NCBI GenBank assembly: GCA_964509545.1
Contig: CAZDXQ010000016.1
Location: 509 to 64,508 of the forward strand
Reading direction: 5' to 3'
DNA from: an uncultured Burkholderiaceae bacterium
GTDB lineage: Bacteria > Pseudomonadota > Gammaproteobacteria > Burkholderiales > Burkholderiaceae_F
DNA: 64,000 bases
Part shown: in pieces, positions 11,120 to 27,158 of the stretch
Position numbering within the stretch: position 1 is the first letter of the stretch
Layout: every line of letters starts with the position of its first letter
Notes under the pieces: model-generated
Told to the model about the DNA's origin: nothing
The model's database searches: none
Seen by the model: only the letters and a program-made list of their open reading frames with translations
Made by a program: the position numbers and the translations under genes

Positions 11120-11544
11120 CGGAACGTGGCCTTCTTGTGGCCGAAATAGCTGGTGATAACCGGCACCGCCACGCCTACCGCATGCGCGATCGCCTCCACA
11201 TGCTCGGTGACGCCAACGGCCGGCAGCAACCAGCGCGCCAACACAAGACTCACCACCAGTGTCTGCAGCACCGCCAGCAGGTTGACCAGCGCGAACTTTC
11301 CGACCTGCGGCGCCAACGCCTTGCCGCCGCCGCCGAACACATATTGGCGCATCAGCACGAATGCCACCGCCATGCCGACGAGGTAGGCGCAGACAATCGC
11401 CATCGGATAGCTGAACCAAAGGCTGAAGCCAAAGCGCGAGCCGTAGTTCGCCGCGGCCGCGATGCCGCCAGCGACGACGAACAGGCCGAAGCGCCTTGCT
11501 TCTGCTCGCCCGTCCGCGCCCGTCGACTGCAGATCAGCGCCCAT
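11116..11544 (-). CDS. GtrA-family small membrane protein (polyprenyl-phosphate-sugar translocation family; cf. Rv3789)
   Basis: 142 aa from ATG 11544. Four hydrophobic segments ([20 protein letters not shown]..., C-terminal [10 protein letters not shown]), typical GtrA size and topology. Confidence 0.68.
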
Positions 11545-12862
11545 CGGCCATCGCCATCGAGGCGAGCTGCGAACCGATGCGCATGCTTTCGGAAATCGAG
11601 CGGTCCTCCGGGTAGTAGTGCGAGGTGTCGGCCATGAACAAGCCGCGGACCTTGCTCTGCATTGGTGGCAGCGCCGCGTAGAACCCCGGCGAACAGACCG
11701 TCTGCGCAAACTCGTAGCGCGAAGCCGTCGCCGCGAGCAGATCCTTCGCCGGATCGAAGTCAGGACGGATCAGTCTCATGTAACTGAGCGTTTCGTCGAT
11801 GAAGACCTGAAAGTCGCGACGATATTTGGGGTGGCTCTGCGGCATGTAGTAGGGCGCGTACACGATGGCGCTGCCGTCGAGCGGATTGAGATTCGAGTAT
11901 TCGATCAGGCCGGGGATCTCGATGCGCCTGTCGTTGATGTTCATCCAGAAGTTGCGCGTGAACGGCCGGCGCAGCTTCAGAAGAACGCAGACGACGCCGA
12001 CGTTCCTGATCGCGCCGATCTTCGCCTTCTCGTCGGCCGGTACGCCTGGCATCACGCGGACGAGATAGGGCAGCGGAATCGTCGAGATGACCCGGTCGAA
12101 CGGGACCTCGCTGCCGTTGACCCTGACGCCGGCGACGCGACCGTACGCCCCGTCCTGCGCGATTCGGACTTCCTCGACTGCCGCCCTCAGTTCGATAGCG
12201 CCGCCGAGCTCGCGGATTCGCGCGGCCACGGCATCGAGCAGGACCTCCGAGCCGCCGACCAGGTAACCCAGTTCCTCCTCGAAGATGCTTCTGCGCGACA
12301 GTGCGACCCGCTTGATGCGCGTGCCGAGCCAGGCGGCGGAAAGCTGATCCTGCAGTTCGTAGAACTTGTAGTGGAACAGGCTGCGCCACAGCACGTCGTA
12401 GGCGCGTGGCCCGATCCAGCGCTGCAGCCATTCGGTCGATGAAATCGCGTCGTACGTGCGCCAGTCGTCGATGCTCTTGGCGCGCATCACGTGCAGCCCG
12501 TAGCGGAACTTGTCGACCAGCCCGAGCGCCGGGAACTTCAGCAGCGCCAGCGGATGCCCCCAGTCGTACAGGCGGCCGTCAAAAAAGAACCCCATTTTCG
12601 TCCGCACCCAGCGCAAACGATCCTCGAGGCCAAGCTCGCGCAGATAGCCGAAGGTGGTCCGGTCCGGGCGGCAGATGAAGTGGTAGTAGCGTTCGATGCG
12701 CGTGCCGGCAAAGTCGAGCGCCGCCGACATGCCGCCGATGCGATCGTCGCGCTCAAGAACCGTGACCGCGTGTCCGCGCTTGGCCAGTTCGTACGCCGCC
12801 GCGAGACCCATCGGCCCGGCGCCGATGACCGCGACCCTCCGACGCTGCTCCCGTTCACTCAT
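11534..12862 (-). CDS. NAD(P)/FAD-dependent oxidoreductase (amine-oxidase / phytoene-desaturase-like fold), substrate unknown
   Basis: Start ATG 12862 ([44 protein letters not shown], a dinucleotide-binding GxGxxG-x17-E motif). 442 aa. Confidence 0.7.
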
Positions 12863-12896
12863 CGTTGCGCGCGTTTCACCGTTGTTGGCTCGCCAC

Positions 12897-13841
12897 TCAG
12901 TCTGTGCGCTCGACCGTGTAGCGCGAATAGACCGGATGGCAGAACGTCTCGCGAATGCCTTCAACAAACGGCGTCGGCTTGAAGCCGAACGTCTTTTCGA
13001 TATCGACGCCGGAGAAATCGTCGCCGGCTGTCAGCGCCTTCAGCTGGCTCGAAGTGAACGGCGGCCTGTCGCTGAACAACGCGTAAAGCTTCAGCAACGC
13101 ATCGAACAGACCGTAGGGAATGCGAACGATCGGCGTCTTCAGCCCTTTGGCGTCGCGGATGGCGCGGATGATGTCGATGTAGTCGATGCGCTCGTTGCCG
13201 ACCAGGTCGTAGATCTGGCCCACCGGCCGGTTCTCGATGCACCAGATGATGGCCCGGCAGAAATCGCGTTCGTACAGCGGCTGGCGCATGTAACGGCCGT
13301 GACCCGGGATCGGAAAGACGGGAACCCTTTCCATGAAACGCGCAAGCCAGCCGAAGTGCTTGGGATCGAACCAGCCGTACATCAGCGTCGGCCGCAGCAC
13401 GCAGCCGGGCAGGCCGCTTTCCAGGAACATTTTCTCCTGGGCCTTCTTGGTGTTGGTGTAGTCGTCTTCGGCAACGGAGTTGACCACCGAACTGCTCACA
13501 AGGACGGTAAACGGCACCCTGGCGCGGCGGATCGCCTCGAACACGAGTTCCGATGCAACGAGGTTGTTGCGCTCAAAGGGCGCGGAGGTCTTGCCGGTGA
13601 TCTGTGCGTGCAGCACGACCGCCGTATCGGCGCCTTCGAAGTCGCGTTGCCAGTCGCCGGGTTCGGCGAGGTCGGCCTCGATGACCCGAGTACCCCCGTT
13701 CAAGCTCCCGAGCAGTTCAAGGTTACGAGATTGCTTGTCAATAGCGAGAATTTCGGCATAACCCTTCTCGCGCAACAGCACTACGAGGTTCTGACCAACC
13801 AATCCGGCGGCGCCGGTAATGACGGTTTTTCGACCCGGCAT
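12897..13841 (-). CDS. NAD-dependent epimerase/dehydratase family protein (extended SDR)
   Basis: Start ATG 13841 ([23 protein letters not shown] = GxxGxxG). 314 aa. Confidence 0.78.
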
Positions 13842-14211
13842 CGCGGACGCCTCTTCAGTGAAGCTCAAGCTTCGCCTCAACCACTAACTAGGCGAATGCG
13901 CCGCTCGGGGTGGCGCCCCGCCGCCGAGCGGAAGTGTCTGTCAAGATCATTGCCGAAAGCGATTGGGACAATAATGACGGCGGTTCCCGACAGATGGCTG
14001 CCTCGATTCGCTGGCGAGCATCTTCGAATCGACCTCTTGCCGGCCAAGATCGCGTGGATCATCGGACGTGCGACTTCGTCCACGACTCGCCAGTGAGGAA
14101 CTTAACCGATCCGATCCCGGCTCCCTCGTCGCCATCTCCCTCGGTTATCGATGGTGCCACTTCGTTCATCGGCATAGCATGAAACAACTCACCACTTTCA
14201 CTTCCTTCACT

Positions 14212-15891
14212 TCACCGCCTCGTTACCCCCGATCTCTCAAAACGGAGGCTTCCGAGAACCCACGACAGTTCCCGCTCGTCCGCGCCATCCTTGGCGCGGA
14301 CCGGAGCAAGCACCGTGATCGACCTTGCGCCTCGGGGAAACGCGACACGCTCCGAAAAATCGCCCGCGCGCTTAACCTCAAAAGCACCTGCCAGGGCACC
14401 GTCACTGAATACCTGCACGACGAACATGCCGTCAGGATAAGACGTCAGATTCGGCAACCATCCACTCACTACGACTTCGTCCACCTCAGCATTTGGGACA
14501 CGCAGCCCGAGCCGCGGTCGAATCCACGTCTGCATCTCCTCCTTGTAGTAACCACTAGCGCCCGATTCGTCGATCGAATCGTGCGTTACCACGCTTGGCG
14601 AGTTCTCTTTACAGAAGAGCACCTGGAGATTCTTGACCGCGTGCGGCGATAGACGGACTTTCATGTTGTGCACTGGATGCACAGCACCGTCAGTGCACAA
14701 CCATGATTGGGCCTCCTTCATGCTCAACTGTCGGATCGCAGACACGCGCCACTCTGTCCGGAGCGAGTTCACATAGCCAGCTGCGACCGCTAAGCCAAGA
14801 ATTCCGAGAATTACTGGCCTCTGATAGCGATTCAGCAGAAGCACAGTTCCGACTGCACCCGGCACTAGTAGAGGCACGTAACGAGGCGCCTCGGGTTGAA
14901 AGATTCCGGCCGAGACCCGCGAATACGTCACTCCAAGAATCAGGCAGGCGGTTAGCCCGATACAAAGCAATTCGAACATGGTTGCGGGCCACTCCCTGAG
15001 CGCCCTGAACGTGCAGCTAGCGGTAACTATGGCGACCGCGCCTCCTGCAAGCACTGAAAATATCGGCCATCGACCAACATCGAAAAAAGCATGGGCAATC
15101 ATTCGCAGCGCATGCTCTGTGGCCAACGGAAGCACGAGTTCGCCCGTGCCGACACCGCTGCGCGGCGCGAGCAGTTGCGAAATGCCAAATACCGCCAACC
15201 CGACGCATACGCCAAGGATTACTACCGGCGAATACTGCCGCCCCTTCGTCAGCATCATGAGCGCGCCGCCCGTCAGCACAAGGCTGAAAATGCCAGCGCC
15301 ATTGGATAACGTCGCCAGGAGAGCACATGCCATCGCCCAGGCCACGTGCTTTGGCTTTCCTTCGACAGCGAATCGGCGCGCCGCCGCAAATGCAGCCAGG
15401 CTTGCCGCGAGGAACGCAGCGAAGGCGAGCTGCATCGACCAGTACAAGTTCTCCCACTGCCGAGTGGTCAAGACGAGCAACGCAATTGCTCCGCCAGCGA
15501 ACAGTCCTGCCCAGAGGTCGCCGAAGTCGACACGGCCGAGGACCAATGCAAGTGCCACAAGAAGTAGCGGAACCTGCGCGTAGGACATCCACACCCACGG
15601 AAGATCCAGCTTCACCGTCCCTGCGATGAGCAGTTTCAGGAGAATGTAGGGATGGCCATTGTGCGCGGCCAGAATCTCACTGAAGGATGGAAACTCATTT
15701 CGCGCAAGAGCATCGAACAGGGCGTCGAAGGTCAGTTCGTCCTGAAACGGTGTACCGAAGCCGGCTCGCGAAATCAGCAAGAGCAGGATCAGAGACAGTG
15801 CCATTGAGCCCCCGAGCGCCACGATTCGTAGGGTCACGGGCGTCTTCGCAAGAAGTTCAGCGCGCGCGGACATCAACTTTTCCAGGGGCAC
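14212..15891 (-). CDS. polytopic membrane protein, GT-C-like glycosyltransferase candidate with a ~170-aa C-terminal soluble domain
   Basis: 559-aa ORF (GTG 15891; alternative ATG 15873). At least 10 hydrophobic helices. Acidic QDELTFD motif right after the first helix, where GT-C enzymes carry their D/E motif. No family recognised with certainty. Lower-GC sequence. Confidence 0.5.
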   Translation of the reverse strand: MPLEKLMSARAELLAKTPVTLRIVALGGSMALSLILLLLISRAGFGTPFQDELTFDALFDALARNEFPSFSEILAAHNGHPYILLKLLIAGTVKLDLPWVWMSYAQVPLLLVALALVLGRVDFGDLWAGLFAGGAIALLVLTTRQWENLYWSMQLAFAAFLAASLAAFAAARRFAVEGKPKHVAWAMACALLATLSNGAGIFSLVLTGGALMMLTKGRQYSPVVILGVCVGLAVFGISQLLAPRSGVGTGELVLPLATEHALRMIAHAFFDVGRWPIFSVLAGGAVAIVTASCTFRALREWPATMFELLCIGLTACLILGVTYSRVSAGIFQPEAPRYVPLLVPGAVGTVLLLNRYQRPVILGILGLAVAAGYVNSLRTEWRVSAIRQLSMKEAQSWLCTDGAVHPVHNMKVRLSPHAVKNLQVLFCKENSPSVVTHDSIDESGASGYYKEEMQTWIRPRLGLRVPNAEVDEVVVSGWLPNLTSYPDGMFVVQVFSDGALAGAFEVKRAGDFSERVAFPRGARSITVLAPVRAKDGADERELSWVLGSLRFERSGVTRR

Positions 15892-16011
15892 GGCCGATGG
15901 CCGAGCCGCCGCTGCTTGCAGCGCCGATCGGGACTAAGTACAGACATGCAGGCATCCATGCTTTCGGCGCGGCCAGCTTGAGTAAAGAGCGCGCATCGTC
16001 CTTTGCCGAAA

Positions 16012-16027
16012 ACCCGCGATCGCGGGT
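16012..16027 (-). terminator. possible rho-independent terminator after the methyltransferase gene
   Basis: Perfect palindrome ACCCGCGATCGCGGGT, 23 nt past the stop at 16050. On the minus strand it is followed by TTTCGG. The short U-tract makes it only moderate. Confidence 0.4.
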
Positions 16028-16049
16028 CGCCGTTCACCGCCTCGAAATG

Positions 16050-16838
16050 CTAGACGGCCGACTTTTCTGCGATGACGAATTGCGCCCAGGACGTCCAGGA
16101 CCAGTATGCGAATTGCACCGCGTACTCGTCCTCCTTGTTATCGCGAAAGTGTGCAAGCAGCTCCTCTTCCAGGAACGGATTGCGGACGACGCCTTGCTGT
16201 TCAACAGTCAGGCCGAGCTCCCCAAGCCAGCGGACGACGTCTTCACGCGGTGGGATCCGCAGATGCGTCGAATCGTCAAAGAAGGAAGAGATGATCAGGC
16301 GCACTCCCGCTCGCTCGAGCGTCTCACGACTCGGCAAAGATTGCGATAAGGGAGTTGGCCACTCGACATATAGACGCCCTCCATCCTTCAGCCGGCTGGC
16401 GGCCCACTCCACAAAACCCTGCGGTTCATGGATATGTTCGATGAAGTGTGACGACATGATTGCAGCAAACATCATCCCATCGAAGCCGGGCCGAGACTCC
16501 TCCCAATTGCCGAGCTCGAAGCGCGCGTATCGGTCAAAGTGCGCTCCCTTTTCAAGGGACACCGCATAGAGTTCCAGATCACTCCTTTGCGGCGCGGGCC
16601 AGGTCTTGATCATCGCCAGTGATCCATCGCCGGCGCCCATGTCCAACACCTGGGCATGTCTGGGCAGACTCTTGAGAAACAGCGTGCGCGGATGGGACGA
16701 ATGCATGAATTCGACGGCACTCGTCTTGCTCATCACTGGCCGCCGGTCACGGAAGAACCAGTCAGCGACTTCCCTGACAGTGATGCTCGTCACTTCGTTC
16801 ATATCCCAACCCGATCCGTTGTCTTCTTGCTTTCGCAT
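16050..16838 (-). CDS. class I SAM-dependent methyltransferase
   Basis: 262-aa ORF. Motif I VLDMGAGDGSL. Lower-GC sequence. Confidence 0.75.
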   Translation of the reverse strand: MRKQEDNGSGWDMNEVTSITVREVADWFFRDRRPVMSKTSAVEFMHSSHPRTLFLKSLPRHAQVLDMGAGDGSLAMIKTWPAPQRSDLELYAVSLEKGAHFDRYARFELGNWEESRPGFDGMMFAAIMSSHFIEHIHEPQGFVEWAASRLKDGGRLYVEWPTPLSQSLPSRETLERAGVRLIISSFFDDSTHLRIPPREDVVRWLGELGLTVEQQGVVRNPFLEEELLAHFRDNKEDEYAVQFAYWSWTSWAQFVIAEKSAV

Positions 16839-17138
16839 TTCCGGCGCCTACGCTGGCGCAGTCGCCAATCTGATGCTTGACCGTCCACGCATCGAATTCT
16901 GTTGGCAAGTGTCTCTATCCACATTCAGCACAAACATTTCGGCATGCAGCCGTCAGTCACGCGAGCGAACCGTCGAGCTACCGCCCTACCGTACTCACGT
17001 GCGAAACGCCGTCGATGCCAACCTCATCGCGTCAATGCACAAAGCGGCGTTGAGTTGCTCATTGGGAACCCTGTTCTCTTCGGAACCAAGGCCAGTCGAA
17101 AAAATTTGCCGACTGCCACCTGTGCTCGCACCCCGCCG

Positions 17139-18164
17139 TCAAGCTTTCGCCCTCGCTCGACGCTCACCAGTTTCAGCCAAGAAGTGCGCCGCCTGAATAA
17201 GGCGATCCGCGGTGATCGAGCTGTTGTCTGCATGCTTGCTGTAAGAACAGTAGTCAGGCGATGTCGACGTGACCTTGGCGAGTAGGCCGAAGCCGTCAAT
17301 CTCCGCCGCCGATGTCGGCGCAAAGAAAGCTACCGACTTCACACCCTGGGCAATGCCTAGATGCATGGCGAGACTATCGCTTGTGATCAACAAATCGAGG
17401 CGCCCGATCAATGCGGCCATCCGCAAGACGGAATCATTGGTGTTCGGCACCAGAAGCGGCAGTCGCGAACGCGTCGCCGCGATTTCCAAATTGCGGTCGC
17501 GGTCGTTGCCGGCGCCGAAGAGCACTACGGCACATCCTTGGCCAAACGGTCCATGACCGGCCAGCAATGCGTCGATAAGCCTGATCAGTTCCGGCAGGCG
17601 CAACTCCTTCGACGGCCAGCGCCCACCGGCGAAGGGATTGATCCCAATGAGTGACTGATACGGTCGGAACGAAGTGGCCGCCCACTCGTTCAGGTGCGGA
17701 TTGCCGTAGAAGACTGGCTCTACGCTCGCTACCCCAAAGAGATCGCAATGGATCTCGGCGTGCCCTCTCGTGTTGAGCTTCTTGAGTTCATCCGCACGAG
17801 CCTTGCCAAATCGCGACAGCAGGCCCATATCGAACCAGCCCGCAGCATCGTCCGTGTAGGTCGGCCGCCCATTCCGCAACAGCGCGCCGGTTATCTCGCT
17901 CGTCTTTAGCTGTGCGACGTCGTCGAGGACATCCAACTCGTCGTCAAGCGAAAAGATGCGGTCGAACGAAAAAACACGCGCCTCGGCAAACGACGTCCAG
18001 ATGTCATCGATCCACGGATTGAAGCGCAGAAGCGGCACCGATTCCGGTGCTGTCAGCCAAGACAATCGCAGGCCTTCGCCAAATCTCCTGCGCAGCGCTC
18101 TGGCGAAGTAGGATGTCCGCACGACGTCGCCGAGCGCTCCGTGCTTGACGATCAGAATCCTCAC
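17139..18164 (-). CDS. glycosyltransferase family 9 (heptosyltransferase-like)
   Basis: 341 aa. N-terminus MRILIVKHGALGDVVRTSYFARAL is typical of GT9. GTG start overlaps the upstream stop (GTGA). Confidence 0.75.
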   Translation of the reverse strand: MRILIVKHGALGDVVRTSYFARALRRRFGEGLRLSWLTAPESVPLLRFNPWIDDIWTSFAEARVFSFDRIFSLDDELDVLDDVAQLKTSEITGALLRNGRPTYTDDAAGWFDMGLLSRFGKARADELKKLNTRGHAEIHCDLFGVASVEPVFYGNPHLNEWAATSFRPYQSLIGINPFAGGRWPSKELRLPELIRLIDALLAGHGPFGQGCAVVLFGAGNDRDRNLEIAATRSRLPLLVPNTNDSVLRMAALIGRLDLLITSDSLAMHLGIAQGVKSVAFFAPTSAAEIDGFGLLAKVTSTSPDYCSYSKHADNSSITADRLIQAAHFLAETGERRARAKA

Positions 18165-21100
18165 AGCGTCGCCACCTCCGCGCCAGTCTCGATCCTTGTC
18201 GTTGCCGCCGTCCGAACCGCTGGCAGCATGTCCTGCATCAGGCAGCGACGCATTGCCGCCAGAGAGAAATTCTCCTGGGCGAACTCAGTCTGCCGCCGCC
18301 GCTGCGCTCTCCACGCATCGTCGTCGGAAAGCAGCCGCAGCACCGCGGCCGCGAACCTTTCGGCGTCGTCATGCACCGGTATCGTTCCGGACAATTGCTC
18401 CATACCCTGCGCGCCGATAGACGTGGTGACCACCGGCACGCCGAAACGCATCGCCTCGACAACCTTTCCCTTCATTCCTGCGCCGTAGCGAAGCGGCGCG
18501 ACGACGACACGAGCGCGGGCATAGTGCCCGGCCAGTTGCTCATCGGTGACATAGCCTGACACGAGGACATTCTCATCTGCCGCCAGCGCCTTCACGTTCT
18601 CAGTCGGATTGGAACCGACGAGCCAAAGGCGCACAGAAGGATCCTCGGCCCGAATCAGCGGCCATGCGTTCTCGGTGAACCAGACCGCCGCATCTTCGTT
18701 CGGTGGATGGCCAAAGCCGGCGACGAAGAGCAGATCCCGCCGCGACGCAAGATTGGTCTCCTCAACTGGCGCGAAGTCTCGGAAGCCGAACACCGGAATC
18801 GTTCTGACGACCTTATCCGGCCGGAGCCCGCGCACGTAGGACGACTCGCCGTCGGCCGGATAGTAGATCACGTCGGCCAAGGACCAGAGTCGGCGCTCAA
18901 GTTCCTCCATCCGTGCCGCCTCGGCATCGGCTACCTTCGAAATACCGACGACCTTCGCCTGTTCTCGAATCCGAAGATGGTGGATGTCGTGCCCGTAGTA
19001 AAAGATCTTGGCATTGCTGTTGGCCCGAAGAGCATCGATGAAGTTCGCTGCGACGTAAGGCCTGCTCAGCAGCGCGTAATCGATGTATTGGCCGTGCTCT
19101 GCAATCCATGTATCGAATGCGTTCGAGTATTCCGTCCCGTAGAAGACCTCCACGCCCATCGCTTGCAGAGCGCCCGCGTACTGGGGATCACGCCAAAGGT
19201 TCTCCGGCCAAAACTTGACCTGGTAGCCCATTTCGACCAACAGCTCGATCCACTGGTACATCGTTCTCGAGCCTGCGTCGCGATCCGGTTGTGGCACATA
19301 GTGGTCGACCACAAGAACGCATCGCTTGTTGCGCGACCGCTCGCGAGCAAGAAACACGTGCTCGGCATTCGGGAAATGGAAGACCTTCAGCGTCTCCTGC
19401 CAGCGCCGCAGGAACTTCTTCTGGTTCTCGACCTGGTAGGCCTTGATGCCTGTCGTCTCGTCCGTACCGTGACTGACGCCCTCGAAGTGAATCACGACTG
19501 ATCGCGGCTGGTAGACGACCTTCAGGCCGCGCTCGCGGATTCGAAACGCCAGGTCCGTGTCCTCGCAATACGCCGGAACGTATAACTCATCGAAACCGCC
19601 AAGGTCGCGGAGCAGACTCGTGCGGACAAGAATCGATGCCGCCGAGCAATAGTCGGTCTCGCGCGCAAAGTTGAACATCGAACGCTCCGGGTCCTGAAGT
19701 CGGCCGAAGTTCCAGGCCGATGCATCGGCCCAGACGATCCCACCCGCCTCCTGGAGCCGACCATCCGGAAAGACCAGCTTCGATCCCGCCAGTCCGCAGT
19801 CCGGCCACCGCTCGAACGTCCCGACCAGCGCATCGAGCCAGCCCGCCGTGACTTCGGTGTCGTTGTTGAGGAAGTGGACAAACTCACCCGAGGCAAGCTG
19901 AACGGCACGATTGCAGGAACGCAGAAATCCCAGATTTTTCGCGTTGACCTCGTAGCGCAGGCCGGGGACGCCGGCCAGCCGGCCTATCTCGGCGTCTCCC
20001 GATGCGTCCTCCACGACGATGATCTCGACGGCCACGCTCGGCATATTGCGGGCAATCGATCTGAGGCAGGTCAGCGTTACGGCGAGCTTCCCATACGTGG
20101 GAATGATGATGGTCACTCGGGGCCTTTCGGCCACCGGAAACGCCAGTTCAGCCAGAACTCTGTCGACCTCGCCGGCTTCTTCGATCATTTCTGCCAGCGG
20201 CGCCTGCTGGCGATACTGCTGCGCAAGCTTCCACTGCTCGTAGCCGACCAGACCGGAAAACAGCGGCCCGCCGACGCGATAGGCGAGGCGTGCCATTTGC
20301 TGCTTGCGCCGATGGGACAGAGGCAGCTTCAGGTACACCTTCAACGCAATGCGCTGCACCTCGGGCCGCAGCCCGCCCATGACGAGGCGCCACTCGCCTC
20401 GCAGAAGCCGTCCGGCAACACGAAGCGGCCGAGTCAGCCGCCACGACCGCGACCATATGATCCTGTGCAACTCCGCTTCTCGTTCCGCGAGTCGCTGCTG
20501 TGTCTGCAGCAACGATCGCTCGACACGCACCCTCTCGTCAGCCTTCACCGCTGCGTCACGTTGCGCTGCCTCGAGACCTCGTCTTGTTTCCTCGAGGTTC
20601 TTCCTCGTTTCCTCGAGCATCGCGGCCGCGGCCCGGCACTCGGCCTGCGTTGCCTCGATTGTCGCTCGAGCTTGCGACAGTTCCCTCTCCAGGCTCCTTG
20701 CCCAGGTTGCGGCTTCGTCTTGATCGGAGATTGCCTTTGCCAGTTTTTCGCGGGTCTGCATCAACTCGACGTCAAGCGCCTTGGCCCACCCAACCGTCGT
20801 TACATGTCGCTTGACCGGATCATCGACCTCGGAGAGCGCGAACGAAGGCTGAAGTTCCGGAAGCAACGAGTCTTGCGCTGCGCACACCGCGACGAAGTAG
20901 ACGGCGCCACCGAGAAGCGCCGTTCGCGGCGCCCACGAATCGCCGCGATCCGCAAACGCGCTGTACTGCGGCGCATGCTGGCCATCCGGCAAGAGCGCCG
21001 AACCCGTCACCATGCGCTGCGTCACATAACGGATTGCCGGGAAACTTCTGCGCAGCAGGCGATCGAGTTCGTCGAAGTCGAGCTCCCGAACATGAAATTC

Positions 21101-21556
21101 GTTGGCCGCTTCGCGCATCTGTCCGTAAACGGGACGGTTTGGCGACGAGAGCACAAGCAAGCCTTCGGGAGCGAGTACGCGACGAATCTCCGCCAGCATC
21201 ACGTCCTGCTCCCGCAGGTGCTCGATCGTTTCGAACGACACGACCCGCTCGACACTGCCGCTCGCCAGCGGGATCGCGCATGCGCTTCCCCACGCAAAGC
21301 GCAGATTCTGCTGTCGCGAGTAGCGCTCCGTCGCGTGCGCTACGGCCGCGGCGTCGATGTCGACCCCGACAACATGGCGCGCCTCCTGCGCAAGCATGAA
21401 TGACCCATACCCCTCGCCACAGGCAATGTCGAGCACGGACTTGCCATGGCAAAGCGGTGTCGCCCAGGCATAGCGGTGCAGGTGCTCAAGACGGATTTCT
21501 CCTCCGAGCTCGGGCACGTAGCGCTCGCCGGTGAACTGCATGCCGGCGCTACCCAT
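18161..21556 (-). CDS. multidomain O-polysaccharide assembly protein: SAM methyltransferase + coiled coil + GT2 + GT4/GT1
   Basis: 1131 aa. MT domain is about aa 1-230 (20867-21556, VLDIACGEGYGSFMLA). Heptad-rich Ala/Glu/Arg/Gln segment is about aa 262-366 (20459-20773). GT2 is about aa 480-720 (19397-20119; IIIPTYGK..., VEDASGD, NNDTEV). GT4-like domain is about aa 745-1105 (18242-19324; VAPLRYGAGMKGKVVEAMRFGVPVV). Confidence 0.8.
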   Translation of the reverse strand: MGSAGMQFTGERYVPELGGEIRLEHLHRYAWATPLCHGKSVLDIACGEGYGSFMLAQEARHVVGVDIDAAAVAHATERYSRQQNLRFAWGSACAIPLASGSVERVVSFETIEHLREQDVMLAEIRRVLAPEGLLVLSSPNRPVYGQMREAANEFHVRELDFDELDRLLRRSFPAIRYVTQRMVTGSALLPDGQHAPQYSAFADRGDSWAPRTALLGGAVYFVAVCAAQDSLLPELQPSFALSEVDDPVKRHVTTVGWAKALDVELMQTREKLAKAISDQDEAATWARSLERELSQARATIEATQAECRAAAAMLEETRKNLEETRRGLEAAQRDAAVKADERVRVERSLLQTQQRLAEREAELHRIIWSRSWRLTRPLRVAGRLLRGEWRLVMGGLRPEVQRIALKVYLKLPLSHRRKQQMARLAYRVGGPLFSGLVGYEQWKLAQQYRQQAPLAEMIEEAGEVDRVLAELAFPVAERPRVTIIIPTYGKLAVTLTCLRSIARNMPSVAVEIIVVEDASGDAEIGRLAGVPGLRYEVNAKNLGFLRSCNRAVQLASGEFVHFLNNDTEVTAGWLDALVGTFERWPDCGLAGSKLVFPDGRLQEAGGIVWADASAWNFGRLQDPERSMFNFARETDYCSAASILVRTSLLRDLGGFDELYVPAYCEDTDLAFRIRERGLKVVYQPRSVVIHFEGVSHGTDETTGIKAYQVENQKKFLRRWQETLKVFHFPNAEHVFLARERSRNKRCVLVVDHYVPQPDRDAGSRTMYQWIELLVEMGYQVKFWPENLWRDPQYAGALQAMGVEVFYGTEYSNAFDTWIAEHGQYIDYALLSRPYVAANFIDALRANSNAKIFYYGHDIHHLRIREQAKVVGISKVADAEAARMEELERRLWSLADVIYYPADGESSYVRGLRPDKVVRTIPVFGFRDFAPVEETNLASRRDLLFVAGFGHPPNEDAAVWFTENAWPLIRAEDPSVRLWLVGSNPTENVKALAADENVLVSGYVTDEQLAGHYARARVVVAPLRYGAGMKGKVVEAMRFGVPVVTTSIGAQGMEQLSGTIPVHDDAERFAAAVLRLLSDDDAWRAQRRRQTEFAQENFSLAAMRRCLMQDMLPAVRTAATTRIETGAEVATL

Positions 21557-22934
21557 TGGCGAGTCCCACGCTGATGTCCAGCATCGGGATACCTATTAGG
21601 CCATGCCGCAGCGTCGCGTCGTTCGAGCGGAATGACAACGCATCATGAATCCAATGCTGCTGAGTATGGTCGTTCTGGGAACCACTCGCTACGGCAACAT
21701 CGACCGTGTATTCGCCTGAAGGCATCAACGGCATGCGGAAGCGGAAACGCGCGACCATACGCTCCCCGGCAGAGGCGCGCGGCGGGCTGCCCAGATACAT
21801 GAGATACGAGTTGTCTCCGAAAAGGCGCTGGCCCAGCCTGTCCTTGACGTAAAAGCCAAAGATGACGTCCTGCACATCCGCGAAAGCGCGCGCCGAGATC
21901 TCGAGTACAACGACCTCCCCTTCGAGCACATGCGCCGACGGGTCACCCGTATCGGCCCGAAGGCGCACATCGTCTATTTCGATCTTTCGCTCGCCAAATG
22001 CTGCGGCGACACGCTCCGGATCGAACTCGAAGACGGGCATCGCCGTGCGGCCTGGAAATCCGACAATGGCTTGCGACCGTACGTCGACCTCGGTCGCGAG
22101 TGAGGGGCACGCCCTGCCACCACGCGAGTTGGTCGCACTCACGGTGACGCGCGCACCCGCGGCGGCCCGGTCTTGTGCGTGTTGCTCCGCCAGATAGCTC
22201 TCCACGACCTGTTTCGACGGTCCGTCCATCATCACCCGCCCCTGCTCGAGCCAGATTGCACGAGAGCAGAGATTGATCACCGCGGACAGGTCGTGACTGA
22301 CGAAAAGCAGCGTGCCGCGGCTCTGGAAATCACGAAGATAACGAGCGCATTTCTGCGAGAAGCGCACATCCCCAACCGACAGCGCCTCATCGATCACCAG
22401 GACGTCCGCGTCGACATGGGCGGCGACAGCAAAGGCCAGGCGGACGTACATGCCGCTCGAATACGTCTTTACCGGCTGTTTGATGAAGTCACCGAGATCC
22501 GAGAACGCCACGATTGAATCAAAGCGCCGCGCCAGCTCCTGCTCCGCGATGCCGTAGAGCAGCCCGCTCAGGCGGATGTTTTCCTCGCCCGTGAACTCGG
22601 GGTTGAAGCCCGCGCCGAGCTCGAGCAACGCTGCAACCCTGCCGTGCCGCGAAACGCTGCCCGTCGTGGGCGTCAAGGTGCCACAGATCAGCTGCAGGAG
22701 CGTTGACTTGCCCGAGCCGTTCCGGCCGATGATCCCGAGTGTTTCCCCTTCCGCGACATCAAAGGAGATGGGATGCAGGGCCCAGAACTCTCTCGCATAC
22801 TGCCCCGGCGCGAATCCACAGAAGCGGCGAAGCCTCCCAAGGACCATTTTGCGCAGCCGATCGACCGGCCGGGCGTAGACGTCGTAACGCTTTGAGAGAT
22901 CGTCGGCGCGAATCGCGACCGGCCTAGAGGACAT
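21549..22934 (-). CDS. wzt: O-antigen/polysaccharide ABC transporter ATP-binding protein with C-terminal extension (Wzt-type)
   Basis: Start ATG 22934. Walker A GRNGSGKST, signature YSSGMYVRLAFA, Walker B VLVIDEAL. About 200 extra C-terminal residues (21552-22172), beta-rich, as in Wzt carbohydrate-binding domains. Confidence 0.88.
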   Translation of the reverse strand: MSSRPVAIRADDLSKRYDVYARPVDRLRKMVLGRLRRFCGFAPGQYAREFWALHPISFDVAEGETLGIIGRNGSGKSTLLQLICGTLTPTTGSVSRHGRVAALLELGAGFNPEFTGEENIRLSGLLYGIAEQELARRFDSIVAFSDLGDFIKQPVKTYSSGMYVRLAFAVAAHVDADVLVIDEALSVGDVRFSQKCARYLRDFQSRGTLLFVSHDLSAVINLCSRAIWLEQGRVMMDGPSKQVVESYLAEQHAQDRAAAGARVTVSATNSRGGRACPSLATEVDVRSQAIVGFPGRTAMPVFEFDPERVAAAFGERKIEIDDVRLRADTGDPSAHVLEGEVVVLEISARAFADVQDVIFGFYVKDRLGQRLFGDNSYLMYLGSPPRASAGERMVARFRFRMPLMPSGEYTVDVAVASGSQNDHTQQHWIHDALSFRSNDATLRHGLIGIPMLDISVGLANG

Positions 22935-23745
22935 CGGCAAACCCTGGTCGCGTGCGCTGGAACCACCAGAAGGCAAACCAGGCAAACACGGACGCACCAA
23001 CTGTGTAAAGACCCAACCCGATCCAGTCGGGCCAGCGGCCCCAAATCAATGCTTCGCGCGACTGCTCGATGATGAACGTCAGCGGGTTCAACAGCAGCAG
23101 CTTGCGGTATGGCTCCGCGAGCATCGTTGCCGGATAGAAAACGGGCGCCAGAAACATCAGCGCCATCGTCAGGATGCCGACAGCCTGCTGCAGATCGCGA
23201 ATGAAGACGCCCAGCGACGCCAGCAGCCAGACAACGCCGACGACCGCGGGAATGAACGACAGCAGGACGAAGGGAAAGGCGACGACAGTAACGGGCAGCG
23301 GCCCGCGAACCAGCAGCAGCGCGAGCAACAAGGCCAGCGTCGAGACAAGAGCATGAAAGAGCGCCGTTCCGACGACAACCCACGACAGGGTCTCTAGCGG
23401 AAACACGACTTTCTTCACGTAATTGGGATTGCTGACAACGAGCTGAGGCGCCCGATTGGCACATTCGGCAAAGAAGCCGTGGATGATCATGCCCACGAAC
23501 AGAATGACTGCAAACTCGGCCTGCCCTTCGTTCGGAAGACCCCAGCGCGCCTTGAACACGTGGCCAAAGACGAATGTATAGACCAGCAAGAGCAGCAATG
23601 GGTTGAAGAAAGACCAGAAGACGCCCAGCATCGCTCCGCGGTACCGGCCAATCACTTCGCGCCTGGTCATTTGCCGCACCAGGGCGAAGTGACGAGCCAG
23701 CGCCGCCCAAGGCGAAAGGATCCAGAGCCGGTATTCCGCGCTCAC
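22924..23745 (-). CDS. wzm: O-antigen/polysaccharide ABC transporter permease (ABC-2 type)
   Basis: GTG 23745 (GTGA overlap with the rfbD stop). VRQMTRREVIGRYRGAMLGVFWSFFNPLLLLLVY is the typical Wzm N-terminus. Six hydrophobic helices. Confidence 0.85.
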   Translation of the reverse strand: MSAEYRLWILSPWAALARHFALVRQMTRREVIGRYRGAMLGVFWSFFNPLLLLLVYTFVFGHVFKARWGLPNEGQAEFAVILFVGMIIHGFFAECANRAPQLVVSNPNYVKKVVFPLETLSWVVVGTALFHALVSTLALLLALLLVRGPLPVTVVAFPFVLLSFIPAVVGVVWLLASLGVFIRDLQQAVGILTMALMFLAPVFYPATMLAEPYRKLLLLNPLTFIIEQSREALIWGRWPDWIGLGLYTVGASVFAWFAFWWFQRTRPGFADVL

Positions 23746-24638
23746 GGCTGCCAGTCTTCGAGGCACAGGTTCAGCGCCTGCTCCCAATGCGGCATGCGGA
23801 TTCCCCAGATTTCTCCGACCCGCGAGTTGTCGAGCAATGAGTACATCGGCCGCTGCGCGGGTGTCGAGTACTCCGTGGTCGCGATCGGCACAAGCCGCTT
23901 CAGGCGGCGCTGGGAGTCCGCAACCCCGTCGAAAACCCTCTTCGCGAACTCGTACCAAGTCGTTGCGCCGGACGCCGTCAGATGGAAAATGCCGCCTCGC
24001 TCCTCGAAGATTCGGCGCACGGAGCCGGCGTCACGCCCGGCACGCGCCAGGATCTGAGCCGTCGCTTCGGCAACGGAACGTGCCCAGGTCGGAGCGCCAA
24101 GCTGATCGTTCACTACCTTGATTTCCTCGCGCTCACGCGCCAGGCGCAGCATGGTGCGGACGAAATTCTGGCCGCGGTTGGCGTAAACCCAACTTGTTCT
24201 GAGAATGATCGCCGGCGCGCCGCTGCCGAGGATCGCCGTTTCGCCGGCCGCCTTGCTGCGCCCGTAGGCCGACAACGGGCCAGTGCGTTCGGATTCGCGC
24301 CAGGGCTTCGTCGCCCGTCCGTCGAAAACGTAATCTGTCGAATAGTGCAGCAAGGCCGCGCCGTTCGACCGTGCCCACCGAGCCATGGCCGCCGGCGCCT
24401 CAGCGTTGATCCGGAAAGCGAGGTCTTCTTGCGACTCAGCCAGGTCCACCGCAGTAAATGCTGCAGAATTAACGATGACCTGCGGCCGAACCGCATCGAG
24501 GAGCGAAGTCACGTTCTCCGCTTCACTCAGATCACAGTCCGGCTGGTCCAAGGCCACAACTTCACCGAGCGTTTGCAGGGTCCGCGCCAGTTCGTAACCC
24601 ACCTGACCGTTCCGTCCTGTCAGAAGAAGACGAATCAA
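23742..24638 (-). CDS. rfbD: dTDP-4-dehydrorhamnose reductase
   Basis: 298 aa. LLTGRNGQVGYEL, YSTDYVFDG, YGRSKAAGE motifs. TTG start overlapping the rfbC stop. Confidence 0.9.
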   Translation of the reverse strand: MIRLLLTGRNGQVGYELARTLQTLGEVVALDQPDCDLSEAENVTSLLDAVRPQVIVNSAAFTAVDLAESQEDLAFRINAEAPAAMARWARSNGAALLHYSTDYVFDGRATKPWRESERTGPLSAYGRSKAAGETAILGSGAPAIILRTSWVYANRGQNFVRTMLRLAREREEIKVVNDQLGAPTWARSVAEATAQILARAGRDAGSVRRIFEERGGIFHLTASGATTWYEFAKRVFDGVADSQRRLKRLVPIATTEYSTPAQRPMYSLLDNSRVGEIWGIRMPHWEQALNLCLEDWQP

Positions 24639-25183
24639 GGAAACACCTCGGCCCGATCCAGGTACGGGGCGGAGAGGTCCTTGCCCGCCAGCAACGGCCC
24701 ATCGTCGATCCGGCCCCAGTCGACAGCGAGCTGCGGGTCGTTCCAGCGCACACTCCGGTCGAATTCTTCCATCCAGTAGTCGGTAGTCTTGTACAGAAAA
24801 TCTGCGAATGCGCTACGCACCAGGAATGCGTGCCCGAACCCAGGCGGAACCCACAGCTGAAGCTTGTTCTCCGCGCTCAGTTCGACGCCCACCCACCTAC
24901 CGAAATTCGGCGACGAGCGTCGCAGATCGACCGCCACGTCGAACACCGCACCGCTGACCACCCGCACCAGTTTCCCCTGCGGCCTGACCAGCTGATAGTG
25001 GATGCCGCGCAGCACGTTCTTCGCCGAGCGCGAGTGATTGTCCTGCACGAACGTCACGTTGAGCCCGGTCGCCTCGCGAAAGACCCTCGCGTTCCAGCTT
25101 TCCATGAAGAAGCCGCGCTCGTCGCCGAAAACCTTCGGCTCGAGGATCAGCACTTCTGGTAATGCGGTGGCAGTGACCTTCAT
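24635..25183 (-). CDS. rfbC: dTDP-4-dehydrorhamnose 3,5-epimerase
   Basis: ORF 24635..25192; ATG 25183 preferred (MKVTATALPEVLILEPKVFGDERGFF...RGIHYQ). Confidence 0.92.
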   Translation of the reverse strand: MKVTATALPEVLILEPKVFGDERGFFMESWNARVFREATGLNVTFVQDNHSRSAKNVLRGIHYQLVRPQGKLVRVVSGAVFDVAVDLRRSSPNFGRWVGVELSAENKLQLWVPPGFGHAFLVRSAFADFLYKTTDYWMEEFDRSVRWNDPQLAVDWGRIDDGPLLAGKDLSAPYLDRAEVFP

Positions 25184-25188
25184 CCCAT

Positions 25189-26082
25189 TCAAGCCGTTGG
25201 CGGGACGATTCGTTCGGTCAGCATGGCGCGCAGGTATCTGCCGTACTCGTTCTTCGTCAGCGGCGCGGCCAGCCGTTCGACTTGCGCGGCATCGATCCAG
25301 CCCAGCCGGTACGCGATCTCCTCCGGGCAGGCGATCTTCAGGCCCTGCCGCTTTTCGATCGTCTCGATGAAGTGCGCCGCCTCGAGCAGCGATTCGTGCG
25401 TTCCGGTGTCCAGCCAGGCCGAGCCGCGCCCCATTACCTCGACGGTCAGTGCCTTAGCCTGCAGGTAAAGCCGGTTGACGTCGGTGATCTCGAGTTCGCC
25501 GCGCGCCGAGGGTCTGATCGAGGCGGCGATGTCGAGCACCCGGTTGTCGTAGAAATAAAGGCCCGTGACCGCATAGTTCGAGCGCGGCTGCTTCGGCTTT
25601 TCTTCGATGCTCATCGCATGGCCGCGAGCATCGAATTCGATGACGCCGTAGCGCTCGGGGTCGTTGACGTGATAGGCGAACACGGTGGCGCCATTGGGCC
25701 GGGCATTGGCGCGCACCAGCGAAGGCGCAAGGTCGTGGCCGTAGAAGATGTTGTCGCCGAGGATCAGCGCTGCCGGATCGCGGCCGACGAACTCGCGGCC
25801 GATGATGAACGCCTGCGCCAGCCCGTCTGGCGACGGCTGCACTGCGTAGTCGATGCGGATACCCCACTGGCTGCCGTCGCCGAGCAGTTCGCGGAAGCGC
25901 GGCGTGTCGGCCGGCGTGGAGATCAGCAGCACCTCCCGGATGCCGGCCAACATCAGCGTGGTCAGCGGGTAGTACACCATCGGCTTGTCGTACACCGGCA
26001 GCAGCTGCTTGGAGACGACTTGCGTTACCGGATACAGCCGCGTGCCCGAGCCGCCGGCGAGGATGATGCCCTTGCGGTTCAT
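25189..26082 (-). CDS. rfbA: glucose-1-phosphate thymidylyltransferase
   Basis: 297 aa. [20 protein letters not shown]...[16 protein letters not shown]. Confidence 0.95.
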
Positions 26083-27158
26083 GCGTTCTCCGCGGCGCCC
26101 GTCCTAGCGCCGTAGTTGGCGTTCATCCACTCGCGGTAGCGCCCGTCACGCACGCGGTCGACCCAGTCCATGTGCTCGAGGTACCACCGCACCGTGGCGC
26201 GGATGCCCTCGCCGAACGAATGCTGCGGCGCCCATCCCAGCTCGGCCTCGATCTTGCCCGGATCGATGGCATAGCGGCGATCGTGGCCCGGTCGGTCGGT
26301 GACGAAACGAACCTGCTCGCTGTAGCGTCCGGCGCCCTTGGGCCGCATTTCATCGAGGATGGCGCAAACGGTGTTGACGACGTCGATGTTGCGGATTTCG
26401 TTCTTGCCGCCGATGTTGTAGGTCTCGCCGGGGCGGCCGCCGCGCAGTACCCGGCGGACCGCAGCGCAGTGGTCGGTGACGTAGAGCCAGTCGCGCACGT
26501 TGCGCCCGTCGCCGTACACCGGCAATTCCTTGCCGTCGAGGGCATTGAGGATCATCAGCGGAATCAGTTTCTCCGGAAACTGGAACGGCCCGTAGTTATT
26601 GCTGCAGTTGGTCGTCAGCGTCGGCAAAGCGTAGGTGTGGTGATAGGCCCGCACCAGGTGATCCGAGGCGGCTTTGGAGGCCGCGTACGGGCTGTTCGGC
26701 GCGTAAGGCGTGGCTTCGCTGAAGGCCGGATCGTTCTCGTCAAGCGAGCCATAAACCTCGTCGGTGGAGACATGCAGGAAACGAAAGCCGTCGCGCTCGC
26801 TGCCGGTCAATTCGGCCCAGTAGGCGCGCACGGCTTCCAGCAGTTCGAAGGTGCCGTTGATGTTCGTCCGCACGAACTCGCCCGGCCCGTGGATCGAGCG
26901 GTCGACATGGCTCTCGGCGGCGAAATGCAACACGGCGCGCGGCCGATGCCGCCCAAGCAGTTCCGCGACGGCCTGCCGGTCGCAGATGTCGACCTGCACC
27001 AGGGCGAAGGCAGCGTTGCCCTGAACCGCCTTCAGGTTGTCCAGGTTGCCGGCGTAGGTGAGCTTGTCGATGACAAGCACCGGCTCGCCCTCCAAGCGCA
27101 ACCACTCGTGGACGAAATTGGCTCCGATGAAGCCGGCACCACCGGTGATGAAGATCAT
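26079..27158 (-). CDS. rfbB: dTDP-glucose 4,6-dehydratase
   Basis: Start at codon 30 of ORF 26079..27245 ([16 protein letters not shown]). YAASKAASD (YxxxK). ATGA overlap with rfbA. Confidence 0.95.

Follow-up and report, generated by a model that had tools for sequence, protein, structure and literature searches.

A predicted methyltransferase, coiled-coil and glycosyltransferase fusion protein encoded in an rml-wzm-wzt operon

Operon structure and domain composition

The analyzed window, a DNA stretch of 64,000 nucleotides, contains on its reverse strand an operon with the gene order rmlBACD-wzm-wzt(Wzt_C)-fusion gene-GT9-like gene, in which stop and start codons overlap. The following genes and features were found at this locus:

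23,742-27,158, reverse strand: rmlB-rmlA-rmlC-rmlD, dTDP-L-rhamnose synthesis (Pfam and gene calls, including rmlC, PF00908)
22,924-23,745, reverse strand: wzm, ABC-2 permease (Pfam ABC2_membrane; 273 aa in the JGI call)
[quoted passage not shown]
21,591-22,001, reverse strand: Wzt_C CBM, proposed reader of the methylated end (PF14524, aa 334-470 of the ORF)
18,161-21,556, reverse strand: the fusion gene, methyltransferase-coiled coil-cationic linker-GT2-GT4-like (ORF list, JGI gene call, Pfam, AF2)
20,822-21,556, reverse strand: class I SAM-dependent methyltransferase (MT) domain, proposed chain terminator, aa 1-245 (Pfam, AF2)
20,459-20,797, reverse strand: coiled-coil spacer of 16 continuous heptads, aa 254-366 (period 3.5, heptad layout, AF2 helices)
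20,123-20,458, reverse strand: post-coil block with the SRSWRLTRPLR motif, aa 367-478 (conservation, charge, amphipathicity)
19,337-20,122, reverse strand: GT2 glycosyltransferase module of GT-A fold, aa 479-740 (Pfam PF00535/PF13641, Foldseek)
18,161-19,336, reverse strand: GT4-like glycosyltransferase module of GT-B fold, aa 741-1131 (Pfam, Foldseek)
17,139-18,164, reverse strand: GT9-like glycosyltransferase (PF01075, E = 5e-8; GT9 structure PDB 3TOV, E = 9e-7)
16,050-16,838, reverse strand: stand-alone Methyltransf_23 methyltransferase (Pfam)

The original prediction of a single 1131-aa protein with the order MT, coil, GT2, GT4 was confirmed by the ORF list, by Pfam domain HMMs and by Foldseek folds. 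The ORF begins with ATG, and the same 1131-aa gene was called independently by JGI on the source metagenome contig. Because the homologues begin at MxFTGER, the real start may be M6 (ATG at 21,541), giving a protein of 1126 aa. The AF2 model has a mean pLDDT of 83.4.

Pfam Methyltransf_11/25/31 domains were found at aa 35-155 (E = 4e-20 for Methyltransf_11/25), and the Rossmann-type sheet of the AF2 model reaches aa 240 with a pLDDT of about 90. The VLDIACGEGYG motif noted earlier lies at aa 41-51. Residues invariant in the family include D43, G47, G49, G51, D66, E109, E112, and H113, together with G10-E11-R12, H25, and H27-R28-Y29 at the N-terminus. Judged by these motifs, the MT domain appears catalytically intact. 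Searching the PDB by sequence and by profile returned small-molecule and sugar O/N-methyltransferases as its relatives. Among homologues, the N-terminal module can be replaced by a sulfotransferase, a Methyltransf_24 domain, or an MT joined to an additional domain, with the coil-GT2-GT4 scaffold unchanged, as would be expected if the terminator is modular.

No Pfam match was found in aa 160-478. In the post-coil block, S369, S371, W372, T375, P377, and R379 are invariant or nearly so. This block has a net charge of +10, a muH of about 0.5, and a period of 3.6 rather than 3.5; no transmembrane segment was found in it. It occurs in 69 representative clusters at varying positions. These cationic amphipathic helices may serve as a hinge or anchor the protein peripherally to the membrane.

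Glycos_transf_2 was matched at aa 479-693 (E = 1.5e-15), and Foldseek returned GT-A matches for this module (E about 1e-13); invariant here are the D517 region, N564-N565-D566, and E665-D666-x-D668. Glyco_trans_1_4/Glycos_transf_1 was matched at aa 940-1091 (E = 4.7e-27), and the GT4-like module aligned structurally with MshA, PimA, PimB', and BshA (TMt 0.67-0.73). Its invariant residues are H950, K1029, K1031, and E1034.

Among the neighboring genes, rmlBACD are the likely donor supply, and the upstream genes wzm and wzt are translationally coupled. The JGI call for wzt is 461 aa (21,549-22,934), the junction sequence shows that its stop overlaps or abuts the start of the fusion gene, and the nearest solved structure is 8DKU, the A. 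aeolicus Wzt with CBM. On the other side, the start of the GT9-like gene overlaps the stop of the fusion gene (GTGA). The GT9-like enzyme is possibly an adaptor or a third polymerase glycosyltransferase; no homologue of it was found among the related loci L001-L034. The stand-alone Methyltransf_23 gene is located two genes downstream of the fusion gene.

The spacer and its length across homologues

The A/E/R/Q/L-rich heptad segment of the original prediction is present, and its coiled-coil propensity is borne out by calculation; its length, put at about 105 residues, was slightly underestimated, since the register runs through aa 254-366. The hydrophobicity spectrum of the spacer peaks exactly at period 3.5 (z = 5.8; none of 500 shuffles equaled it), and the same spectrum gave no such signal for the MT, GT2, or GT4 parts. 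One unbroken heptad register extends from aa 254 to 366, including residues 322-338. One core column reads A L L Q A L I C L L L A R L L L; in the second, T/A/L/V predominate. The P+G content is 0.9%, and the extended spacer would span about 165 Å. A search for a tandem repeat in the spacer DNA found none. The AF2 monomer has helices at aa 247-321, 324-332, and 339-368, with a pLDDT of 43-73 over aa 250-370 and a low-confidence kink at 322-338 that contains G327; structure prediction alone is thus compatible with a folded-back hairpin. A crude scan of a/d occupancy was unimpressive.

Among about 130 homologues, strong variation is confined to the spacer, which ranges from 31 to 710 aa, whereas the C-terminal part is constant (712-793 aa). 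The homologous spacers are also heptad-periodic (median z = 4.6). The distance corresponding to W257-W372 is congruent to 3 modulo 7 in 65 of 130 proteins and in 29 of 77 distinct lengths (p = 3e-7). This dominant class holds just about half of the homologues. For 40 comparisons between enzymes that share at least 80% identity over the catalytic part, the difference in coil length is a multiple of 7 in 21 (p = 1.5e-8) and a multiple of 28 in 13 (p = 7e-10). Coil length is thus quantized in heptads across homologues, often in units of 28 residues.

Relation to known systems

Fusions of this MT-coil-GT-GT design are already known, as WsaE (2008) and Klebsiella O7 ORF6 (2024), and have been validated experimentally; the protein analyzed here is a good ordinary example of that design and not a discovery. 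Both proteins were compared by description. WsaE, the S-layer glycan methyl-rhamnosyltransferase of Geobacillus stearothermophilus NRS 2004/3a (AAR99608), likewise combines in one chain an N-terminal O-methyltransferase, which caps the terminal rhamnose, with two rhamnosyltransferase domains. Its locus is similarly arranged (wzm-wzt-wsaE, overlapping stop and start codons, adjoining rml genes), and its cap, which consists of methyl only and which Wzt has been proposed to read, resembles the cap predicted here. WsaE-like genes in syntenic Xanthomonas lps loci were noted in 2007, and full-length Firmicutes homologues of the fusion protein are 34-35% identical to it. The WsaE product, however, is a protein-linked S-layer glycan of a Gram-positive bacterium, and wsaE is followed by WsaF, a GT4 β-1,2-rhamnosyltransferase, rather than by a GT9-like gene. 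The portions of the WsaE literature available to us describe no coiled-coil ruler.

ORF6 of the Klebsiella pneumoniae O7 rfb locus (PMC11231755) has the same layout of N-terminal MT, central coil, and two C-terminal glycosyltransferases, in a similar context of rml and wzm/wzt genes and a rhamnose-containing O-polysaccharide. This protein has been characterized experimentally, and its coil was interpreted as a molecular ruler (PMC11231755). It is longer (about 1414 aa), with two further elements between MT and coil, an Ig-like CBM and a cryptic kinase of about 223 aa; the protein analyzed here leaves no room for a kinase because its coil begins at aa 254, shortly after an MT fold that extends to about aa 240. 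In addition, ORF6 installs methyl-phosphate and both of its glycosyltransferase modules are GT2 (PMC11231755), as opposed to the proposed methyl cap and the GT2 plus GT4-like GT-B pair found here.

A WbbB-type all-in-one architecture had been proposed. Its terminator-coil-polymerase logic holds (distal MT, proximal glycosyltransferases, CBM-bearing Wzt), but homology to WbbB or WbdD does not: neither was retrieved in PDB sequence or profile searches, and the likeness is one of analogy. WsaE and ORF6, neither of them mentioned in the original prediction, are closer precedents. WbbB of Klebsiella O12 and Raoultella terrigena likewise has, in one polypeptide and in this order, a terminator, a coil, and two polymerase glycosyltransferases, along with a CBM-bearing Wzt, but its terminator is a β-Kdo glycosyltransferase and its glycosyltransferase families differ. 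WbdD (E. coli O9a/O8, K. pneumoniae O3/O5) and the E. coli O101 protein carry, as here, an N-terminal MT on a coil. In WbdD, a kinase can be present or absent beside the MT, a membrane-binding region follows the coil, and insertions and deletions showed that the trimeric coil of about 200 Å sets the modal length; methyl-only caps are known in O8/O5 and O101. The polymerase WbdA is a separate, recruited protein, whereas the polymerase is fused in the present case.

The Wzt_C module is treated in the literature as a hallmark of cap-dependent export, and its combination with a coiled-coil terminator is a recognized marker of the ruler/cap strategy. In a sample of about 18 loci, which lack phylogenetic independence, the Wzt CBM shows 51-56% identity in the 11 loci whose terminators are methyltransferases; where terminators differ, it is at most 29% identical or undetectable, at similar NBD divergence. 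At the level of sequence, the CBM thus co-varies with the terminator class. The CBM has diverged in two loci from Firmicutes whose MT is of the same type.

Proposed mechanism and alternative explanations

By analogy with these systems, the data support a fused terminator, ruler, and polymerase, and the enzyme probably makes a rhamnose-containing, methyl-capped surface polysaccharide of coil-measured length. We consider it likely that it is a trifunctional polymerase-terminator for an ABC-transporter-dependent O-polysaccharide, with a ruler coil, a methyl cap, and CBM-licensed export. [quoted passage not shown] A parallel homo-oligomeric coiled coil would hold the MT about 16 heptads (about 165 Å) away, so that the MT would O-methylate the non-reducing end only after the chain has grown to a length that reaches the MT. 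Terminal O-methylation would halt elongation and set the modal length, and the Wzt CBM would read the methylated end and license export by Wzm/Wzt.

An unlikely alternative is that the fused MT decorates internal or side-chain sugars or another substrate, that the coil oligomerizes or scaffolds, and that length is set by the stand-alone Methyltransf_23 enzyme or by transporter:polymerase stoichiometry, which governs chain length in K. pneumoniae O2a. The second methyltransferase gene within the operon might encode the true capping enzyme and is a candidate for this rival methylation, or for internal or side-chain methylation; yet none of the 34 related loci carries it, whereas fused MT and matching Wzt CBM co-occur. 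In vitro methylation by WsaE is independent of chain length, with an additional length determinant suggested, terminal modification in K. pneumoniae O1 diversifies structure without length control, and the nearest solved relatives of the MT are generic small-molecule methyltransferases. However, the O2a-type strategy has a Wzt without CBM, chemically different end-capping-type enzymes swap onto the same scaffold, and a mere oligomerization domain does not need a variable, heptad-quantized length. Considerably less probable still is that the segment forms a helical linker that is flexible or folded into a hairpin, with MT and glycosyltransferases close together and fused for co-expression or channeling. 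The low monomer pLDDT with its break around G327, the a/d scan, and an Ala/Thr-rich core position fit such a linker, but an obligate oligomeric coil is expected to give low monomer pLDDT, and the period of exactly 3.5 (not 3.6), the register continuous across the break, and natural length changes in whole heptads, from 31 to more than 500 residues, fit a disordered linker poorly.

The enzyme could also act as proposed in making a capsule-like polysaccharide, an exopolysaccharide, or a protein-linked glycan instead of LPS O-antigen, which we regard as improbable, though less so than the linker. The nearest functional precedent, WsaE, does build an S-layer glycoprotein glycan, homologues occur in Gram-positive Firmicutes, and neither an O-antigen ligase nor an initiating phosphoglycosyltransferase was found in the examined part of the window. 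An LPS product is favored by the LPS-core-type flanking genes (GT9-like; PfkB/HAD/epimerase of heptose type), by a host that is Gram-negative judging by its closest relatives, and by the synteny of the window with the lps locus of Xanthomonas, for which there is a genetic link to LPS. The gene order wzm-wzt(CBM)-homologue recurs in Dyella, Paraburkholderia, and Stenotrophomonas.

Domain anatomy and the coiled-coil spacer

The ORF at positions 18161-21556 of the window (minus strand) encodes a protein of 1131 aa, and gene calling on its source, a JGI metagenome contig of 79.6 kb, gave the same gene. The original prediction of a single protein combining a methyltransferase (MT), a coiled-coil spacer, and GT2 and GT4 glycosyltransferase domains was borne out by the ORF, Pfam, AlphaFold2, and Foldseek, and the Pfam domains were found in the order stated there. 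The enzyme modules of this protein, herein referred to as the target, are the following:

aa 1-245, MT module, with SAM-binding motifs intact and invariant in the family; Pfam assigns aa 35-155 to a class I SAM methyltransferase
aa 479-740, GT2 module; Pfam finds GT2 at aa 479-693
aa 741-1131, GT4-like GT-B module; Pfam finds Glycos_transf_1/Glyco_trans_1_4 at aa 940-1091

No Pfam domain was found at aa 160-478. The full-length AlphaFold2 model (monomer, 42 homologues as input, mean pLDDT 83.4) contains three confident globular domains, and aa 247-368 are helical almost throughout. In Foldseek searches, the central domain matched GT-A enzymes, and the C-terminal domain resembled the GT4 GT-B enzymes MshA, PimA, PimB', and BshA (TM-score 0.67-0.73, target-normalised). 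Catalytic motifs are invariant across the family in all three enzyme modules. This anatomy, like the comparative signatures of the family, was observed directly.

Because the homologues start with MxFTGER, the true start of the target may be M6, at position 21541. Whichever start codon holds, the end of wzt is tightly coupled to the start of the target, and the target stop codon overlaps the GTG start of the following gene.

The spacer is, judged by its sequence, a genuine coiled coil, and the predicted coiled-coil propensity was recovered by calculation. In a Fourier/shuffle test, the hydrophobicity spectrum of aa 258-365 peaks at exactly 3.5 residues (z-score 5.8), a peak reached by none of 500 composition-preserving shuffles. 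For the adjoining linker the peak lies at 3.6, and no 3.5 periodicity signal was found by this test in the MT, GT2, or GT4 domains. In an explicit register layout, the heptads are continuous over aa 254-366, giving 16 heptads. Set out seven residues to a row, aa 258-363 show A-L-L-Q-A-L-I-C-L-L-L-A-R-L-L-L in one column and mostly T/A/L/V in the second core column. These two analyses superseded a crude scan of hydrophobic occupancy at a/d positions, which gave values of 0.5-0.88 in 28-residue windows. A low-confidence kink at aa 322-338 of the AlphaFold2 monomer is regarded as a probable artefact of monomer modelling, since the heptad register runs through it. At 1.48 Å per residue the coil would span ~165 Å; a length of ~200 Å has been reported for the WbdD coil.

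The coil is followed by a cationic amphipathic block (aa 367-478, net charge +10) that contains no TM segment and opens with the invariant SRSWRLTRPLR motif. Family-wide, this motif (window 20426-20458; aa 367-377) is nearly invariant and is kept with different terminators. Candidate roles for it are a hinge, a membrane contact, or an oligomer cap.

Operon context and comparison with known systems

The target belongs to an operon with the gene order rmlB-rmlA-rmlC-rmlD-wzm-wzt-target-GT9-like-methyltransferase. The wzt gene lies directly upstream of the target and overlaps it, an arrangement kept in related loci. The C-terminus of Wzt is a Wzt_C carbohydrate-binding module (CBM; aa 334-470 of the ORF; Pfam: PF14524, E 2.5e-34). 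In Dyella, Paraburkholderia, and Stenotrophomonas, wzm and wzt always precede the full-length homologue, and the CBM of that Wzt has 51-56% identity to the one here. According to the literature, terminators with a coiled-coil ruler typically occur with a Wzt that recognises the terminal modification through its CBM. In PDB searches, Wzt matched only A. aeolicus Wzt and NBD structures.

The terminator-ruler-polymerase design of the target is not new; it already serves specialists as a marker of O-antigen assembly that depends on an ABC transporter and has a controlled chain length. Four features of the functional class of WbbB, O7 ORF6, and WsaE were found here: an N-terminal terminator-type domain distal to the coil, an extended coiled coil between terminator and polymerase, membrane-proximal polymerase GT modules in the same chain, and a Wzm/Wzt partner with a C-terminal CBM. 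By analogy, a cap at the non-reducing terminus of the glycan and a modal chain length that shifts with coil length would be predicted.

WsaE of Geobacillus stearothermophilus (AAR99608) is described as trifunctional: its N-terminal 2-O-methyltransferase caps the rhamnose at the chain end, and two rhamnosyltransferase domains follow. Its gene stands in the order wzm-wzt-wsaE, and the junctions overlap. By the published description of WsaE, the target is similar in its MT-GT-GT order, its length of ~1100 aa, and its wzm-wzt-gene overlaps near rml. Full-length homologues of the target were found in Firmicutes at 34-35% identity, and reports from 2007-2010 described homologues of WsaE in the Xanthomonas lps locus. 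The target is likely orthologous to WsaE, a protein known here by description only. WsaE has a WsaF-type GT4 β-1,2-rhamnosyltransferase as its partner, whereas the adjacent downstream gene of the target is GT9-like. This neighbor was rejected as a WsaF equivalent; it matched PF01075 and PDB 3TOV, and no WsaF match was found. Two genes on this side of the target are:

17139-18164, minus strand, GT9-like glycosyltransferase gene adjoining the target
16050-16838, minus strand, stand-alone Methyltransf_23 gene near the target

Counterparts of these two genes were found in none of the 34 related loci, and both are specific to the target locus.

ORF6 of Klebsiella pneumoniae O7, which has been dissected experimentally, consists of a methyltransferase(-kinase), a coiled coil, and two GT2 modules (PMC11231755). 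It differs from the target in its polymerase, which in the target is GT2 plus a GT4-like GT-B module. Between its MT and coil, O7 ORF6 also carries a kinase (~223 aa) and an Ig-like CBM, and its cap is methyl-phosphate. Both inserts are absent from the target, in which the short interval between the end of the MT fold at aa 240 and the start of the coil at aa 254 leaves no room for an extra domain. By analogy, an MT lacking the kinase and CBM would give a methyl-only cap. In WbbB, the terminator is an N-terminal β-Kdo transferase instead of a methyltransferase. WbdD is a stand-alone MT(-kinase) with a coil and a membrane anchor that recruits a separate polymerase, whereas the GT modules of the target are fused to its terminator. 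Stand-alone MT-coil terminators are routine, as in WbdD and the E. coli O101 MT.

The original prediction had placed the logic of WbbB and WbdD-WbdA in one chain, with a methyl cap replacing Kdo. As a functional analogy this stands, on the architecture, the coil, and the CBM-bearing Wzt. As homology it does not: PDB sequence and profile searches with the target retrieved no relative of WbbB, WbdD, or WsaF, and homology to WbbB or WbdD was therefore rejected.

The proposed mechanism follows the characterised systems. The post-coil cationic amphipathic block (aa 367-478) would hold both GT modules at the membrane, where the GT2 and GT4-like modules would polymerise the chain on a lipid-linked acceptor. 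The coil would keep the methyltransferase ~16 nm away; chains reaching it would be O-methylated, elongation would stop, and the Wzt CBM would bind the cap before export. We infer that the MT acts on the chain terminus. The characterised systems are likewise the source of the proposed cap, oligomeric state, membrane binding, donor sugars, and ruler effect of the target. Taken alone, the target is a well-formed and unsurprising case of this design. Its recognition allows confident annotation of a metagenomic O-antigen locus, with a predicted rhamnan-type backbone, methyl cap, and CBM-gated export.

The polysaccharide locus (window 12001-26000) has a G+C content of 0.59-0.64, vs. 0.68-0.70 in the flanks, as expected for horizontally exchanged O-antigen loci.

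Coil lengths and proposed terminators among the homologues

A word-indexed homologue search scored a set of candidates, of which 1380 matched at E<=1e-10; the top 120 matches have the Pfam domain set of the target. The homologues are 1039-1729 aa long, with nearly all of the variation in the spacer (31-710 residues, median 136); the distance from the post-coil motif to the C-terminus is 712-793 residues. Heptad periodicity was also found in the homologous spacers (median z 4.6).

The spacing of two invariant tryptophans, W257 (coil entry) and W372 (SRSW motif), was used as the measure of coil length. Of 130 proteins, 65 share the class of the target (3 mod 7), as do 29 of the 77 distinct lengths (p=3e-7). 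Roughly half of the family belongs to other classes, and its sequences are phylogenetically non-independent. With a cruder coil boundary, 30 of 73 distinct lengths fall into the favoured heptad class (p=2e-8), and under the same definition no heptad length bias was found in the parts flanking the coil.

Proteins at least 80% identical in the catalytic part gave 40 distinct length pairs: 21 of these differ in coil length by a multiple of 7 (p=1.5e-8), and 13 by a multiple of 28 (p=7e-10). Coils of 101 and 192 residues were found despite 96% catalytic-part identity (homologous proteins P0109 and P0116), and coils of 136 and 332 residues despite 91% identity (P0093 and P0035). These pairs, P0098/P0113, and others have 91-99% catalytic identity and coils up to 196 residues apart. 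Near-identical enzymes often differ by an exact multiple of 28 residues, and tandem repeats of 28 residues make up the long homologous coils; across the family, coils range from 31 to more than 500 residues. A faint 28/56 signal is left in the target coil. DNA tandem repeats were looked for in its coding region and none were found; thus, there is no evidence that this coil is slippage-prone at present.

A rigid, phase-preserving ruler would predict such a spacer, free in sequence and quick to change its length by whole heptads. The changes in coil length within the family are recent, and coil length, presumably together with chain length, appears to evolve fast and to be tunable through repeats.

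The N-terminal module is exchanged in other relatives, which retain the coil, the SRSW linker, GT2, and GT4. The replacements are a sulfotransferase (Pfam: PF13469), Methyltransf_24, or an MT followed by a region of ~350 aa. Among the related loci (L numbers), the sulfotransferase and extended-MT relatives are:

L007, 9146-12652 (Cellvibrio sp. OA-2007), sulfotransferase, PF13469
L024, 6848-11965 (alphaproteobacterial MAG), sulfotransferase, PF13469
L014, 8951-12694 (Lysobacteraceae), putative sulfotransferase, GMHRSGTS motif
L016, 9026-12763 (Lysobacteraceae), putative sulfotransferase, by likeness to L014 in length and layout only
L009, 7832-12529, and L012, 8198-12925 (Luteibacter), MT plus ~350-aa region before the coil, relatives of 1400-1575 aa
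L021 and L028 (Firmicutes), MT plus ~350-aa region before the coil, relatives of 1400-1575 aa

A sulfotransferase on the coil-GT2-GT4 scaffold suggests sulfate as a chain-terminating cap. No published precedent for a sulfotransferase or sulfate terminator of this kind was found in the literature searched. The ~350-aa region could, by analogy with K. pneumoniae O7 ORF6, be a cryptic kinase; comparison of the MT plus extra-domain N-termini (L009) with the PDB found no WbdD-like kinase and no detectable WbdD similarity.

The Wzt CBM varies with the terminator. CBMs are 52-56% identical to that of the target locus where the terminator is either type of MT without an extra domain, and <=29% identical or undetectable where it is a sulfotransferase or an MT with an extra domain; this comparison is a small sample of ~18 loci, and in two Firmicute loci the CBM is diverged despite the same MT type. 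In its ATPase domain, by contrast, Wzt has diverged to the same degree in the two groups (46-55% identity). This covariation ties the N-terminal module to the feature that the transporter reads.

The family offers a ready comparative test of the ruler model, with heptad-quantised natural variants, swapped terminators, and co-varying Wzt CBMs. The target gene itself is a modest finding; the family-wide quantised coils and the modular terminators, including the sulfotransferase version, are the more interesting by-products. If coil length sets chain length, the modal length of the O-antigen would be rapidly evolving, repeat-tunable, and readable from genomes, and if the family is a natural series of rulers with interchangeable terminators, sulfate would be a new chain-terminating cap. 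We put this combined reading forward tentatively, considering it a real possibility that falls somewhat short of an even chance.

Possible side-chain genes downstream of the operon

Downstream of the O-antigen operon, the minus-strand genes at window 7381-15873 are syntenic with the lps locus of Xac 306 and Xoo BXO8, and this Xanthomonas locus resembles them almost gene for gene. The region encodes:

7381-15873 (within), minus strand, 553-aa protein with at least 9 TM segments and a soluble C-terminal domain
7381-15873 (within), minus strand, NAD-epimerase; FAD amine-oxidase-like protein; GtrA
7381-15873 (within), minus strand, LPG_synthase_TM protein; HAD+UbiA prenyl-phosphoribosyltransferase-like protein
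7381-15873 (within), minus strand, FAD_binding_4 (DprE1-like) oxidase

By gene content, this set looks like a "three-component" periplasmic system for pentofuranose (arabinofuranose-type) side chains.
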